Part shown: piece after piece, positions 9,371 to 30,165 of the stretch
Layout: the number at the start of each line of letters is the position of its first letter
Numbering within the stretch: position 1 is the first letter of the stretch
Source: Methanocaldococcus jannaschii DSM 2661
GTDB lineage: Archaea > AGJL01 > Methanococci > Methanococcales > Methanocaldococcaceae
Length of the DNA: 32,000 nucleotides
Assembly: GCF_000091665.1 (NCBI RefSeq)
Contig: NC_000909.1
Location: forward strand, 443,581-475,580
Direction of reading: 5' to 3'
Notes under the pieces: model-generated
What the model saw: only the letters and a program-made list of their open reading frames with translations
The model's database searches: none
Told to the model about the DNA's origin: nothing
Made by a program: the position numbers and the translations under genes

Positions 9371-9450
9371 ACTCTCCCTTTGTAATTGTATTTAATTATG
9401 ATAAAAAATAGATACAACAAGTATAAAAATTTGATGAAATATAAAAAAGA

Positions 9451-9738
9451 TTTAAATATCTTCCATTTCAATTATATATAACCATAGAGGGGGCGTAGCC
9501 CCCTCTATTGGGATACTCCCCCAAATCTTGCTTGGACATTAATTGGGGCTGAAAGCCCCAACTTATAACCAATTATCAAAGAAAATATTATTTACTATGG
9601 AATTTAGAAGCCCAAAGGGCTTCTATAGTGCCTTATTTAATTAAAAACTTTGATAATTGGTTAAATGGACGTGAAGTATCCCAATAGAAGGTTTCCTCCT
9701 ATGGGAGTTAAATGTCTTCCATTTCAGTTATTATATAA
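9451..9738. repeat. palindromic modular element E1 (core 9482-9706) with flanking about 31-bp direct repeats
   Basis: The terminal inverted hairpin modules are CCATAGAGGGGGCGTAGCCCCCTCTATTGGGATAC (9482-9516) and GTATCCCAATAGAAGGTTTCCTCCTATGG (9676-9704). Module D is inside, together with a nested segment bounded by the inverted repeat AACCAATTATCAAAG / CTTTGATAATTGGTT. DR 9451-9481 and DR 9707-9738 each copy the last codons (EMEDI) plus the stop of the 9708 gene. Confidence 0.85.
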
Positions 9739-10412: not shown

Positions 10413-10544
10413 AAATATCACCTGATTATTAATTGGATTGAATTTACACCTCCGCCATAAGGCGGAGGTGTTAGGGTGTGTCCCAATAGAGGGTTTCCCC
10501 CTATGGTGGTTTTATTTTTCCCAATACCATAAAATATCACCTAA
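10398..10544. repeat. palindromic modular element E2 (core 10426-10515: module B + module A) with about 27-bp direct repeats
   Basis: Module B is AATTTACACCTCCGCCATAAGGCGGAGGTGTTAGGG (10441-10476) and module A is GTCCCAATAGAGGGTTTCCCCCTATGG (10480-10506). DRs are CTTTCCTAATACCATAAATATCACCTGA (10398-10425) and TTTTCCCAATACCATAAAATATCACCTAA (10516-10544). Each DR carries the SD, the ATG and the first 5 codons of the downstream gene. Confidence 0.85.
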
Positions 10545-15623: not shown

Positions 15624-15746
15624 GGCTATTCCTCCCAATAAATTTTAAGAGGCATTGCTTCTTTGCAGAAGCAATGCATCCTGGGTATCCCAATAGGGCG
15701 AAGCCCTATGGTTTCTGAATAATTCTTTCATCATGGCTATTCCTCC
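15601..15746. repeat. palindromic modular element E3 (core 15636-15711: module C + module A) with perfect 35-bp direct repeats
   Basis: TTTCTGAATAATTCTTTCATCATGGCTATTCCTCC occurs at both 15601-15635 and 15712-15746 (35/35 identical by eye). The core contains GAGGCATTGCTTCTTTGCAGAAGCAATGCATC and GTATCCCAATAGGGCGAAGCCCTATGG. Confidence 0.9.
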
Positions 15747-16448: not shown

Positions 16449-16694
16449 TTACACAGGAATGTAGAGTTTATAAATTGCATATGCAAAGAAAGCTAAAACT
16501 AAGAGCATAAATAAAACCTCAATATCTTCCATTTTATGGGCTATTTTTTTGTTTATGGTTGAGATTGTTAATATCAAGATTAAGCTAAATGCTAAAACTA
16601 CTGGAATGACATTTATTTGCAATAGATTAACCAATACACAATAAATCACGGCAATAATGCATGCAATTGTAAAGAAATAAATGTAGCTTTTCAT
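16449..16694 (-). CDS. ehaK: Eha small integral membrane subunit
   Basis: [18 protein letters not shown]..., about 3 TM helices. ATG 16694 follows SD GGTGG. Confidence 0.65.
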
Positions 16695-16914
16695 TTTATC
16701 CACCCACTGTTAGTCTGTATAAGACCCATAGAGGGGCTTCGCCCCTCTATTGGGATACTCCCCAAATCTTACTAATTTACACCTCCGAGCGTAAGCGAGG
16801 AGGTGTTAGGTTTTGGTGAAGCTTTTACTAAAAGGTTCATCCCAATAGGGGGTTTCCCCTATGGATACAATGTAGCTTTTCATTTTATCCACCCACTATT
16901 AATCGATATAGGAC
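16680..16914. repeat. palindromic modular element E4, full-length composite (core 16726-16868: A + B + E + inverted A) with 46-bp direct repeats
   Basis: The left terminal copy of module A, CCATAGAGGGGCTTCGCCCCTCTATTGGGATAC (16726-16758), is inverted relative to the right terminal copy, CATCCCAATAGGGGGTTTCCCCTATGG (16838-16864). Module B is at 16774-16810. DR 16680-16725 versus 16869-16914 is 41/46 identical. The DR covers the ehaJ C-terminus and stop (VLYRL[I/T]VGG*) plus the ehaK SD, ATG and first 4 codons. Confidence 0.9.
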
Positions 16915-17763
16915 ATCACACAATACAAGTCCAGCAATTGTCATTTGAAGCATGACTGAATGATGAGGAGCTAATAATGGTGTTAATCCATTAACAAATG
17001 CTAAAATCACTGTCATTACAACCATTACAGCCAATGTTAATACAGGGCTGTTTATTACTAAAGGACCAATAAATACAGCTATAAAGAGCCAGAGCAATAC
17101 AAAGTATGCTATTGCCTCTGCAATGTAGATTATAGCCCCTAATAAACCATAATGCTCTGTCATATATCCGCTAACAATATCTTTACCCTTAACTATCCCA
17201 AATGGACTGTTTGGAGCTTTTGAAACAAGCAATATAAAGAATGCGAATGCACAAATTGGCATTTTAAACAATAAACTGCCGTGTATTTCTTGATAACTCA
17301 ATATATCTGAAATTAAAACTGAATGTGTTGTTAAGTATATGGCAGCAACAACTGCAAATAATGGCACTTCTGCAGCTGCTGAAAAGACACTTCTAACCCC
17401 TCCTATCTTTCCATAAGGAGACCCAGATGACAAACCACAACCATGCTCCACTATTTTTTGCAATACATAGATTCCTATAATTATAAGGAGGGATGACTTG
17501 AAATCAATAGCTATAATTAATGCAGCTAACCAAATAGCAATATCCAATAAAGCTACAAATATATAGAGAGGATTTCCAGCAGTTATTGGGAAAGTTATTT
17601 CCTTTACATAGAATTTTAGTGTATGCAATAGATATTGGATTATTGGAGGTCCTGGTCTTCCTTGAATCCTTGCCATTATTTTTCTATGTAATCCAAGTAA
17701 CAGAGAACCAACAAGAAATGCATGGATTGTTAAGTTTATAGCTCCGATAAGTGAAGTATCCAT
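16885..17763 (-). CDS. ehaJ: Eha membrane subunit, NuoH/HycD-like
   Basis: About 292-aa polytopic membrane protein with an RPGPPIIQ-type loop typical of the NuoH/HycD family. ATG 17763 follows SD GGGTGA. Confidence 0.8.
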   Translation of the reverse strand: MDTSLIGAINLTIHAFLVGSLLLGLHRKIMARIQGRPGPPIIQYLLHTLKFYVKEITFPITAGNPLYIFVALLDIAIWLAALIIAIDFKSSLLIIIGIYVLQKIVEHGCGLSSGSPYGKIGGVRSVFSAAAEVPLFAVVAAIYLTTHSVLISDILSYQEIHGSLLFKMPICAFAFFILLVSKAPNSPFGIVKGKDIVSGYMTEHYGLLGAIIYIAEAIAYFVLLWLFIAVFIGPLVINSPVLTLAVMVVMTVILAFVNGLTPLLAPHHSVMLQMTIAGLVLCDVLYRLIVGG

Positions 17764-17953
17764 AAGCATCACCCAGATTTTATCAGTTGTAAATTTACAC
17801 TTCCGAGCGAAGCGAGGAGGTGTTAGTTTTTGATGAAATGGAGAGCTATGCTTTCCAGCTATGAAAACTCTAAGAGTTTTCGTTCAACTTTTTCTAAAAG
17901 TTTCGTTTATAGTCCCTATCAGTGAAGTATCCATATCCTCACCCAGATTTTTA
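17746..17953. repeat. palindromic modular element E5 (core 17784-17916: module B + AT-richer hairpins + truncated A end) with about 38-bp direct repeats
   Basis: Module B is AATTTACACTTCCGAGCGAAGCGAGGAGGTGTTAG (17792-17826). Hairpins are GAAAACTCTAAGAGTTTTC and AACTTTTTCTAAAAGTTT. DR GATAAGTGAAGTATCCATAAGCATCACCCAGATTTTAT (17746-17783) pairs with TATCAGTGAAGTATCCATATCCTCACCCAGATTTTTAT (17917-17953). Each DR carries the SD, ATG and first 6 codons of ehaJ. Confidence 0.85.
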
Positions 17954-18841: not shown

Positions 18842-18968
18842 TTTATCTCACCTAATTTTATTAAATAATGGACATTAATTAGGGCTGAAAGCCCTAACTT
18901 AATGGACGGGTGGTATAGCAATAGGAGGTCTCCTCCTATGCTTTGTCAATCATCTTACCTCACCTATA
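18835..18968. repeat. palindromic modular element E6 (core 18857-18946: module D + degenerate module A) with 22-bp direct repeats
   Basis: Module D is GGACATTAATTAGGGCTGAAAGCCCTAACTTAATGGACG, and module A is GTATAGCAATAGGAGGTCTCCTCCTATG (18913-18940). DR CAATCATTTTATCTCACCTAAT (18835-18856) pairs with CAATCATCTTACCTCACCTATA (18947-18968). The DR is the ehaG-stop / ehaH-start ATGA overlap with its SD. Confidence 0.85.
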
Positions 18969-20116: not shown

Positions 20117-20253
20117 TATTACCCACCTCAAATTTTTCCAAACAAATTAATCAAAATTAATTTACACCTCCGAGCGTAAGCGAGGAGGTGTTAGGGTGTA
20201 TCCCAATAGAGGGTTTCCCTCTATGGTTTCCAAGTTTTTTCATTATTTCCCCC
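20101..20253. repeat. palindromic modular element E7 (core 20128-20226: module B + module A) with about 26-bp direct repeats
   Basis: Module B is AATTTACACCTCCGAGCGTAAGCGAGGAGGTGTTAGGG (20159-20196) and module A is GTATCCCAATAGAGGGTTTCCCTCTATGG (20198-20226). DR TACCAAGTTTTTTCATTATTACCCACC (20101-20127) pairs with TTCCAAGTTTTTTCATTATTTCCCCC (20228-20253). Each DR carries the SD, ATG and first 5 codons of ehaF. Confidence 0.88.
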
Positions 20254-21833: not shown

Positions 21834-21960
21834 TCACCAGCAATGAATTATTATACACCATAGGGCTTCGCCCTATTGGGATACCCAGAGCGGGGCTTCA
21901 CTACGTTCAGCCCCACTTTCTTTTATTTCCCTGATTTACCAGCAATGAATTATAACACAA
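21834..21960. repeat. palindromic modular element E8 (core about 21859-21935: module A + a unique hairpin) with about 25-bp direct repeats
   Basis: Module A is CCATAGGGCTTCGCCCTATTGGGATAC (21858-21884), followed by hairpin GCGGGGCTTCACTACGTTCAGCCCCAC. DR TCACCAGCAATGAATTATTATACAC (21834-21858) pairs with TTACCAGCAATGAATTATAACACAA (21936-21960). Each DR carries the last codons (IHCW) plus the stop of the HTH gene. Confidence 0.85.
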
Positions 21961-23363: not shown

Positions 23364-23583
23364 AAAATAATGGCTCAGTTCGGGTAAGTATCATCACAGT
23401 TCAGCTAACCCTCTTTTCATCATTGCCATATTTATATATATTTTCAAAATTAATGATTTTTATTAGGAGTTAATAGGGTTTATATGTGTATTATCATGTT
23501 GATAATCACTAATGAAAAAGGTTTTTATTTTATTGGCACTTAAATATTATATACTAAATTCAATAATAAGAAATGGTGAAAAC

Positions 23584-27855: not shown

Positions 27856-28106
27856 GTTTTTGATACAATATTGTTCTTCTTAAACACGAAATATAGGGTT
27901 GGACAAAAATCGTGGAAAAAGAGAGGAGGTGACTATGATGGGTTTCCATACAATACTGTTCTCCTTAAACAATTTTAGAGATTAGGGGGGAGCCGCCCTC
28001 ACACCTCCCGTTTCCATACAACAATGTTCTTCTTAAACAGACTATCAGATGTAACCGATATTATCGATAAACGTTTAGTTTCCATACAACAATGTTCTTC
28101 TTAAAC
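27856..28106 (-). CRISPR. orphan mini-CRISPR array, 4 repeats and 3 spacers
   Basis: Plus-strand repeats: 27856-27885 GTTTTTGATACAATATTGTTCTTCTTAAAC (degenerate), 27942-27970 GTTTCCATACAATACTGTTCTCCTTAAAC, 28010-28038 and 28078-28106 GTTTCCATACAACAATGTTCTTCTTAAAC. Spacers are 56, 39 and 39 nt. The minus-strand repeat GTTTAAGAAGAACATTGTTGTATGGAAAC ends in GAAAC, and the degenerate repeat is distal to the AT-rich leader on the right. Confidence 0.85.
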
Positions 28107-28695: not shown

Positions 28696-28831
28696 TTACA
28701 ATTTTCCAGCAACTTCATAACCCTTACTAACCATAGGGCTTCGCCCTATTGGGATACCTGGATGCATTGCTTCTTTACAGAAGCAATGCCTCTTCTTTAT
28801 AACTCCTTTGCAACTTCATATCCCTTACTAA
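28696..28831. repeat. palindromic modular element E9 (core 28731-28796: module A + module C) with 25-35-bp direct repeats
   Basis: Module A is CCATAGGGCTTCGCCCTATTGGGATAC (28731-28757), followed by GATGCATTGCTTCTTTACAGAAGCAATGCCTC. It is the reverse complement of the E3 core. DR 28706-28730 CCAGCAACTTCATAACCCTTACTAA pairs with 28806-28830 TTTGCAACTTCATATCCCTTACTAA. Weaker similarity extends to include both stop codons. Confidence 0.85.
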
Positions 28832-29339
28832 ATGCCAATAAGTTTTTCTCTTCAGTTCCCTTTGGAACACTATCTAAAATTGCCTTTTCCATACTTTCCT
28901 TTGAAACAATATTTGTTAATCTTGTTAAAGCTCCTAACATAACTATATTTGCAACAATTGGAAGTTTTATCTCCTCTGATGCAATCCTTGTAAATGGGAT
29001 TTTATACATCGTTACATCAACTTCTGGCATTTTATCTGTTGAAACTAAATCCTCATCAACCAATACAACTCCTCCCTCTTTAATATCATCCTTATACTTA
29101 TCATAAGCCTGCTGTGATAAACAAACCAATATATCCGGCTTTATAACCTTTGGGAAGTCAATTGGCTCATCACTGATAACAACCTCTGACTTACTTGCCC
29201 CCCCTCTTGCTTCCGGCCCATAAGACTGTGTTTGAACTGCCTCTTTATTGTCATACAATGCTGCTGCCCTCCCTAAAATAACTCCAGCCAAAATAATTCC
29301 CTGCCCACCAAATCCAGAGAGTCTTATCTCTTTTCTCAT
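28797..29339 (-). CDS. korG: 2-oxoacid:ferredoxin oxidoreductase gamma subunit (2-oxoglutarate type likely)
   Basis: MRKEIRLSGFGGQGIILAGVILGRAAA... is the typical gamma-subunit N-terminus. SD GGAGGG precedes ATG 29339. Confidence 0.8.
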   Translation of the reverse strand: MRKEIRLSGFGGQGIILAGVILGRAAALYDNKEAVQTQSYGPEARGGASKSEVVISDEPIDFPKVIKPDILVCLSQQAYDKYKDDIKEGGVVLVDEDLVSTDKMPEVDVTMYKIPFTRIASEEIKLPIVANIVMLGALTRLTNIVSKESMEKAILDSVPKGTEEKNLLAFSKGYEVAKEL

Positions 29340-29352
29340 CTTAACCCTCCTT

Positions 29353-30165
29353 TTATTCACTCTTTAACTTCTCAATCAACTTATGCAATTCCTCAACAAA
29401 CTCTGGTTTCTCTATATCTAAAAACTCACCAACAACAATTTTTCCATTCAACTCCTCTTCACTCATATCCTTAGCTTTATTTAAGTGTATTGAGTTCTCT
29501 TTTAAGAATTTAATCATATCAGCTGGCTTTCTTGAGATGTTGAATCTTCCATAGTATGTTGGACATTGAGAGACAACCTCAATAAACGCAAATCCTTTCT
29601 TTTGAATACCCTTCTTAATTGACCTAACAAGCTGAATTGGATGAGCTGTTGTCCATCTTGCTACATAAGTAGCTCCTGCCGCAATCGCCATTTTACACAA
29701 ATCCATAGTATTTTCTATACTACCATAAGGTGCTGTTGTTGCCTTTTTACCATAAGGTGTTGTTGGTGAAACTTGCCCCCCAGTCATTCCATAGATATTA
29801 TTGTTTATACAGATGACAGTTAAATCTATGTTTCTTCTGCATCCATGGATGAAGTGATTTCCACCTATAGCTGCCAAATCTCCGTCCCCAGTAAATACAA
29901 CAACATGTTTATCTGGTCTTGCTATTTTAATTCCTGTTGCAAACGCTATAGGTCTTCCGTGGGTTGTGTGTAAGGAATCACAGTATAAATAACCAGGAAC
30001 TCTTGAAGAACAACCTATACCTGAAACAGCTATATAGTCCTCTGGCTTTATATTTAGCTCTTCAATAGCCTTTAAAAAGCAATTCATAACAATTCCATTT
30101 CCACATCCAGAACAGAAGATGTGTGGCAATCTATCTTGCCTCATGTATTTTAAAGCTGGATGCAA
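29353..30165 (-). CDS. korB: 2-oxoacid:ferredoxin oxidoreductase beta (TPP-binding) subunit (2-oxoglutarate type likely)
   Basis: FCSGCGNG, SGIGCSSR and GDGDLAAIGGNHFIH motifs. The TTG start at 30165 lies 4 nt after GGTGG; ATG 30144 is an alternative. Confidence 0.8.
   Translation of the reverse strand: MHPALKYMRQDRLPHIFCSGCGNGIVMNCFLKAIEELNIKPEDYIAVSGIGCSSRVPGYLYCDSLHTTHGRPIAFATGIKIARPDKHVVVFTGDGDLAAIGGNHFIHGCRRNIDLTVICINNNIYGMTGGQVSPTTPYGKKATTAPYGSIENTMDLCKMAIAAGATYVARWTTAHPIQLVRSIKKGIQKKGFAFIEVVSQCPTYYGRFNISRKPADMIKFLKENSIHLNKAKDMSEEELNGKIVVGEFLDIEKPEFVEELHKLIEKLKSE

Follow-up and report, generated by a model that had tools for sequence, protein, structure and literature searches.

In enterobacteria and pseudomonads, REP sequences are palindromic units that, in alternating orientation and joined by linkers, form mosaic extragenic elements (BIMEs) at gene ends; they are tied to RAYT, a Y1 (IS200/IS605-like) transposase, and are inserted without long target duplications. 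The BOX elements of Streptococcus pneumoniae combine boxA, boxB, and boxC in several ways into non-coding, hairpin-forming units, for which we know of no report of 17- to 74-nt target duplications. The genome of Methanocaldococcus jannaschii contains about 80 modular non-coding hairpin cassettes. They resemble REP/BIME, as a likeness only, in being mosaics of palindromes and linkers at gene ends, but a Y1 transposase is absent from M. jannaschii and from a congeneric genome, G001; compared by description only, they are like BOX in being modular, non-coding, hairpin-forming composites without a known mobilising enzyme, whereas host and sequence are unrelated.

Other small repeats occur in the same genome. 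Two palindromic families of ~100 nt, with ~27 to 29 loci each (for example, C1:71959-72075 and C1:31121-31216), have the ends TTTGCAAAA/TTTGAAAGAC in one family and CTTTCGCAG in the other and are without long flanking repeats; from a comparison by description only, we take both to be, probably, published MJRE groups. The survey by Suyama, Lathe & Bork in FEBS Lett in 2005 reportedly counted 141 MJRE1-3 elements amounting to 14.3 kb, with units of ~100 nt, and to our knowledge neither a module grammar nor long target duplications nor allele-like copies are described in the MJRE work. The cassettes share with MJRE1-3 the host, the palindromic structure, and the lack of a transposase. The MJRE1-3 survey is cited by two papers (PMC2229807, PMC2996958). 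Like the cassettes, MJRE1-3 are small and mostly extragenic elements with many copies, some of which lie inside or against coding regions. A classical MITE of 97 to 102 nt, of which 17 such ends are found genome-wide, is nested in our cassette E1 and in the D hairpin at C1:143576, 726218, and 1248687, always at the same point of the D module (between ACTTA and ATGGAC) and with a TTA/TA-type duplication of 2 to 4 nt. This MITE and cassette E4, the main subject of this study, are both small, non-coding, and multi-copy, and E4 has inverted ends as well; the cassettes differ from it in their hairpin ends, their usually single A hairpin, and their long variable duplications. The cassettes form a modular family; they are not a classical miniature transposon.

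Of the phenomena described so far, insertion with long target duplication comes closest: its insert is flanked by variable target repeats of >30 bp that genomes with an empty site have only once (Nobusato et al. 2000; Furuta, Abe & Kobayashi 2010, PMC2853133). No other mobile-element gene is involved, and some of these repeats overlap gene 3' ends, including 46-bp cases; the inserts are kilobase-sized restriction-modification units in bacteria, and no archaeal case passed the screen (PMC2853133). The E4 repeat is likewise longer than 30 bp and single copy in genomes without the insert, whereas the cassettes are 60- to 300-nt hairpins that carry no gene and occupy dozens of sites.

Cassette E4 at the ehaJ junction

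The window is a stretch of 32,000 nt from M. jannaschii DSM 2661 (NC_000909.1, contig C1, 443,581 to 475,580), and all positions without a contig label refer to it. The features at the E4 junction are as follows.

16449-16694, minus strand: gene downstream of ehaJ; small membrane protein, 81 aa with the ATG at 16694 as start (ORF)
16680-16725, no strand: direct-repeat copy 1, single copy in relatives
16726-16868, plus strand: cassette E4, a' - L - B - E - a, absent from at least eight congeneric genomes
16726-16758, plus strand: module A hairpin, long-stem subtype, forward (inverted-repeat and module annotation, fold)
16759-16771, plus strand: linker L (CTCCCCAAATCTT), also found after the A hairpin of E1 and of two further loci, F2 and F3 (module annotation)
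16773-16810, plus strand: module B hairpin, with 21 genome copies (module annotation)
16811-16838, plus strand: module E hairpin, an AT-rich palindrome (module annotation, fold)
16839-16868, plus strand: module A, short-stem subtype, inverted, ending GGATAC (module annotation)
16869-16914, no strand: direct-repeat copy 2 (flank alignment)
16885-17772, minus strand: ehaJ-like gene for a NuoH/FpoH-like membrane subunit of 295 aa (ORF and family match)

The NuoH/FpoH-like ORF agrees with the label ehaJ. A family search with the 81-aa protein gave no match, and its gene is probably that of the next eha subunit.

The two copies of the direct repeat are, as originally reported, 46 nt long and identical at 41 of 46 positions; they are spaced 189 nt from start to start. 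The duplication is not the longest one as claimed, that of E5 being 47 to 48 nt. The flank alignment scored 67, and 1,500 pairs of shuffled flanks reached 33 at most. In minus-strand order, the repeat consists of the last nine ehaJ codons, TAA, one base, and ATG plus four codons of the next gene. Copy 2 holds the working last nine ehaJ codons and stop, followed by a spare start of the downstream gene; copy 1 holds a spare set of the last nine ehaJ codons and stop (16725-16696) and, after it, the ribosome-binding site and start that the 81-aa gene uses. With the 46-nt junction present on both sides of the insert, ehaJ has lost none of its last nine codons or its stop, nor has the downstream gene lost its ribosome-binding site or start. 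The 143-nt insert itself contains no gene-sized ORF, and the sole frame entering it, of 25 codons, is opened by the duplicated start.

In eight relatives (G006, G014, G002, G001, G012, G011, G009, and G005), the flanks are adjacent and the 46 nt are present once; alignment coordinates point to an empty site also in G007, G010, and G016. These comparisons show that the E4 cassette was inserted at the junction of ehaJ and the next gene. The site is occupied in G013, where the repeat boundaries are the same, as is the ATAC after CTATGG, and where the insert is 79 nt long and has two A hairpins only, with a different middle (a'...a). No single deletion or insertion converts one insert into the other, and the right A of G013 has a GGTAT leader that is absent in E4, the usual leader being missing there at the junction with module E. 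A common origin followed by exchange of the interior is, in our judgment, rather more probable than two independent hits.

At the right end of E4, the adjoining 19 nt are identical between the repeat copies, and the remaining 27 nt hold all five mismatches; the same asymmetry is seen in G013. In the ehaJ frame, the five mismatches comprise four synonymous changes and one nonsynonymous change; this confirms the earlier count and is typical of the cassette family. Outgroup polarity placed two changes in the spare copy, one in the working copy, and two at sites polymorphic among species, which marks neither copy as foreign.

Module grammar of the cassette family

Folded as single-stranded DNA, the E4 insert forms exactly four hairpins (A, B, E, and inverted A) at -34.7 kcal/mol (z = -6.65), and module annotation reproduced the predicted order of forward A, linker, B, E, and reverse A. 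The end units had been described as inverted copies of one hairpin unit. They are indeed inverted hairpins, with an arm pair of 14 nt at 93% and matches at 23 of 31 positions over the whole units, but they are distinct subtypes, one with a long and one with a short stem, and not copies of each other. Eleven different perfectly paired inner stems occur among 45 copies of the A hairpin; the stems covary, and pairing is kept. Module B is 97 to 100% identical across loci and across species whose genes are 80 to 90% identical, and its exact 28-nt core has matches in Methanocaldococcus records only. B and C (for example, 16773-16810 and 15646-15681) have a common centre, CGAGCG(T)AAGCGAGG, within outer stems that differ and covary. 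This centre can form tandem G-A pairs, two G-C pairs, and a GNRA-like loop, and its sequence hints at a putative recognition motif at the protein or RNA level.

Further cassettes of the window, and the nested MITE, are as follows.

9482-9704, plus strand: E1, a' - L - D - a; flanking repeat 9449-9481/9705-9738
9566-9663: classical MITE of 98 nt, nested in module D of E1; perfect 16-nt inverted ends (TAACCAATTATCAAAG...)
10441-10506, plus strand: E2, B - a (direct sequence reading); site also occupied in G001
15636-15711, plus strand: E3, C - a; perfect 35-nt repeat 15601-15635/15712-15746; site also occupied in G014 and G001
17782-17904, plus strand: E5, B - F - H - E; 47- to 48-nt repeat 17734-17781/17905-17951
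18855-18945, plus strand: E6, D - a; 21-nt repeat; site also occupied in G001
20125-20226, plus strand: E7, spacer - B - a; 25-nt repeat; empty in all five relatives compared
21858-21937, minus strand: E8, G - a on the minus strand; 22-nt repeat; empty in five relatives
28731-28809, minus strand: E9, C - a on the minus strand; 22-nt repeat

E1 has the same A...A-inverted frame as E4 and a linker, CTCCCCCAAATCTT, as had been noticed. The description of E2, E3, E7, E8, and E9 as one A plus one inner hairpin also held, as did that of E9 (a' C') as E3 (C a) in reverse. ORF 28797-29360 (minus strand) has its stop codon within the AT-rich spacer of E9 (28797-28809), and the insertion therefore replaced the last codons of this ORF. 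Positions 9449 to 30436 (C1:453-474 kb, ~21 kb) are a hot spot that holds 9 to 10 of the 78 cassette loci and 10 of the 53 A hairpins, where about one is expected. E3 to E7 occupy five successive eha operon junctions, all in one orientation. The window also contains a CRISPR array at 27942-28106 (Rfam CRISPR-DR42, three repeats called) and the C/D-box sRNA sR3 at 23373-23427, which have no relation to the cassettes.

To delimit the family genome-wide, repeats were first collected de novo, and 75 loci were then annotated for modules with blastn-short and a small hand-made module library. Other approaches were dropped: iterating nhmmer over individual modules missed too much (16 hits for A and 0 for E), a loose fuzzy-regex annotator called too many AT-rich matches (~2,800 for E), and its strict version called too few (6 for B). 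Two-hairpin inserts dominate, with >30 of the 75 loci and the inner hairpins B, C, D, and G: D-a is found at 13 loci, C-a at 9, G-a at 5, and B-a at 3, an inner hairpin plus E (X-E) at 8, and an inner hairpin plus F-H-E at 6, against only 3 to 4 A...A frames. The common independent form of the cassette is one inner hairpin (B, C, D, or G) with a terminal A or E. Genome-wide, both orientations relative to genes occur.

These counts bear on the original prediction, in which E4 was a full-length element and the shorter inserts were half elements. The two-hairpin strings outnumber the A...A frames and have flanking duplications of their own, their inner hairpins C, D, and G are absent from E4, and B-a is without E; the half-element reading thus fails. 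E4 does not stand as the full-length form, either. By blastn, its five-module block recurs in M. jannaschii at C1:1118517-1118657 (98%, F2) and C1:101696-101825 (91%, F3), and both copies extend leftward into an outer A stem and a D hairpin. In relatives, the block is present at at least 14 non-homologous loci in G001, G006, G011, and G016, seven of them in G001; most of these copies are preceded by a C-, D-, or G-type hairpin and an outer A stem, and their left and right ends vary, some starting with CCATAG like E4 and some stopping after E. Copying involves the block as a whole, and E4 is a version shortened on its left. Inverted A pairs at a consistent spacing, a feature of the predicted architecture, do exist: 6 of the 53 A hairpins form E4-type pairs, with an A-to-A distance of 80 to 91 nt at three M. 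jannaschii loci, and the block recurs in relatives.

Where several species are occupied at the same site, the repeat boundaries are the same and the interiors are different. The E3 site in G014 has only the C leader, joined directly to A; the E5 site has B-E in G006 and G014 versus B-F-H-E in M. jannaschii; and the E1 site has a'-L-G-a in G001 versus a'-L-D-a in M. jannaschii. Inner hairpins have been deleted or swapped in place at the orthologous sites of E1, E3, E4, E5, and E6. The original proposal that half elements arise by deletion at inner hairpins is thereby upheld as to deletion in place (E3 and E5 sites) but not as to the origin of the two-hairpin class. Each of the five short inserts with a site traceable in relatives has an empty site in at least one relative, and occupancy of one junction is patchy among species.

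Flanking duplications and spare gene ends

At 48 of the 78 cassette loci, the flanking repeats exceed the 99th percentile of a shuffled-pair null; elsewhere, this is so at 0 of 27 and 1 of 29 loci of the two ~100-nt palindrome families and at 4 of 82 other repeats. The repeats at the 48 loci are 17 to 74 nt long (median 33.5) with a median identity of 90%, and perfect repeats occur at E3 (35/35) and C1:1258255 (21/21). They include tRNA 3' ends (C1:97694, 402876, and 619093) as well as gene 5' ends and whole junctions such as that of E4. Mismatches are evenly distributed along them (12.5, 11.6, and 11.2% in thirds). The start-to-start spacing is a multiple of 3 at 24 of the 48 loci versus 16 expected (roughly p = 0.01, hand count).

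The cassettes have a polarity: the terminal hairpin directly adjoins the repeat (median spacer 0), and an AT-rich spacer lies on the opposite side; it is not a diverged continuation of the repeat, given that none of 29 such spacers exceeded the null. Long ORFs enter from the inner-hairpin side at 27 of 37 loci and from the terminal side at 12 of 37, gene ends being taken as open frames of at least 300 nt and not from annotation. Integration of the Cas1 type was rejected, the duplication lengths being far too variable for a molecular ruler.

No coding unit bounded by A hairpins, the partner envisaged earlier, was found among all A-A pairs within 10 kb; apart from the composites themselves, these pairs belong to separate cassettes that have repeats of their own, as in the wider pairs at 991, 1,599, and 2,895 nt. 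The transposase screen covered the Y1 family: PF01797 had 0 matches in M. jannaschii (G000) and in G001, the genome richest in composites, and is present in only 3 of 17 congeners. Between the E4 repeats, neither an integrase nor an integrated element is found, only 143 nt of hairpins, and an Rfam search gave no family match for the cassettes.

The original prediction explained the synonymous mismatches at E4 by purifying selection on one copy only. For a comparison across the family, repeat pairs that lie over a gene 3' end were combined (32 loci, 360 codons). In frame, the copies differ by 100 synonymous and 39 nonsynonymous changes (pS 0.479, pN 0.045, pN/pS 0.093), and out-of-frame controls gave pN/pS values of 1.26 and 1.31. 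Free decay of one copy, with the other under selection, predicts that about one-third of the differences are synonymous and that pN/pS is ~0.5 or more; decay of one copy therefore does not account for the synonymous mismatches, and the earlier explanation is insufficient. Read-through translation of the spare copies was rejected as well, because ehaJ stops inside copy 2 and several other spare copies are frameshifted.

One case, C1:545486-545768 (L037:237-519), is a 74-nt duplicated gene end with both copies present in six species. Its copies differ at 14 of 74 positions, with 12 synonymous and 0 nonsynonymous differences over 24 complete codons, and the spare copy of M. jannaschii is 5 to 6 positions of 74 away from the functional alleles of G012 and G001. 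The copies fall into two sequence classes common to several species. A comparison of M. jannaschii with five relatives showed that the nearest relative does not switch at E3 to E8, so large imported blocks ending at cassettes are not seen there.

Origin of the insertions

In the explanation that we prefer, E4 is a member of a family of cassettes, spread across the genus, that are non-coding and non-autonomous and are composed of a few GC-rich hairpin modules (A to H) and a linker. The insertion sites would be old, with interiors that change in place as hairpins are deleted or as the common A hairpins allow ectopic exchange; such exchange would account for the 98% identity of E4 and F2 beside an 11% diverged repeat. 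Recombination of one repeat copy with the other could remove the whole insert cleanly. Insertion itself would be due to host replication or repair and not to a transposase, through a polar copy-in. A template switch is one candidate: it would have its start or its end precisely at the terminal hairpin, and copying would run over a length of donor array that varies and would return to the target 17 to 74 nt upstream; this step is read from the anatomy of the cassettes and is tentative. Recombination with functional alleles of other lineages, whether occupied or empty, would then overwrite either copy faster than mutation degrades it, so that the spare gene ends would stay allele-like. We give this explanation as a whole (cassette family, old sites, in-place remodelling, and host-driven copy-in) a probability of roughly 0.5. 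The even spread of mismatches, in which there is no sign of crossovers within the repeats, the one-sided distribution at E4 and in G013, and the unchanged nearest relative at E3 to E8 count against it, and occupancy of the same site in distant species could also reflect site-specific targeting.

Among the alternatives, the one that survives best is compatible with this explanation: the cassettes may be selected structured elements, such as intra-operon terminators, RNA stabilisers or processing sites, or protein-binding DNA hairpins, for which mobility is secondary. Their stems covary with pairing kept, B is nearly invariant where genes are not, and the fold z value of E4 is strongly negative; five cassettes at successive eha junctions in one orientation agree with this, whereas the use of both orientations genome-wide, the patchy occupancy of the same junction among species, and the lack of an Rfam family match do not. 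We regard it as a possibility of the lesser kind.

Recombination between diverged genomes is unlikely. Here, an incoming homeologous fragment would end in the cassette, with a homology anchor on one side and an illegitimate join upstream on the other, so that donor and resident gene ends would stand in tandem from the start; the allele-like divergence, uniform along the repeats, would follow, as would the polar structure with one exact and one variable end. The orientation bias toward gene ends and the spare copy at C1:545486, which is nearer to other species' functional alleles than to its own partner, also speak for it, but the junction-spanning repeats (E4) need a donor already duplicated if both genes are to be kept intact. 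Perfect or near-perfect repeats (E3 and C1:1258255) are a further difficulty, and similarity to relatives does not switch at the window cassettes.

Still less credible is an att duplication by an integrase, with the cassette as the remnant of an integrated element that brought its own gene end, now the working copy, and the spare copy as the displaced host end. At least 48 target sequences would require an equal number of element-borne copies, even though the copies differ as two functional alleles do (pN/pS 0.093) and the repeat lengths fall within the range of att sites; the repeats lie at gene ends and also at tRNA 3' ends, as expected of att sites, but they also span gene 5' ends and whole junctions (E4), some are perfect (E3), and the inserts are 60 to 300 nt of common hairpin modules with no integrase nearby. 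The weakest reading, largely refuted, is the classical MITE, a full-length element with terminal inverted repeats moved by a transposase in trans, of which short inserts are deletion or half derivatives: of the MITE-like architecture first proposed, the inverted A hairpins at both ends of E4, F2, and F3 at constant spacing, the multi-copy block in several species, and the in-place deletion of an inner hairpin at the E3 site in G014 stand, but the duplication is 46 nt at E4 and 17 to 74 nt family-wide where the genuine MITE nested in E1 makes 2 to 4 nt, there is no A-flanked coding unit and no Y1 transposase, most cassettes have one A only plus inner hairpins absent from E4, the A ends are different subtypes, and versions longer than E4 exist.

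Our preferred explanation leads to a proposal that we offer as doubtful but worth stating: a transposase-independent polar copy-in may duplicate 17 to 74 nt of its target, and the cassettes may outlast species as fixed junctions whose 'dead' copies are kept allele-like by inter-lineage recombination. For annotation, the cassettes account for short spurious ORFs and for gene ends that look duplicated, both in the eha operon and in other parts of Methanocaldococcus genomes. If the proposal is true, they would be small mobile DNA outside the rules of transposons, with no enzyme partner, one exact and one variable end, and long variable duplications, which would allow landing in overlapping gene junctions with both genes unharmed. 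The duplicated gene ends would then be a second allele beside the working one and would serve as natural recorders of inter-lineage recombination in hyperthermophiles.
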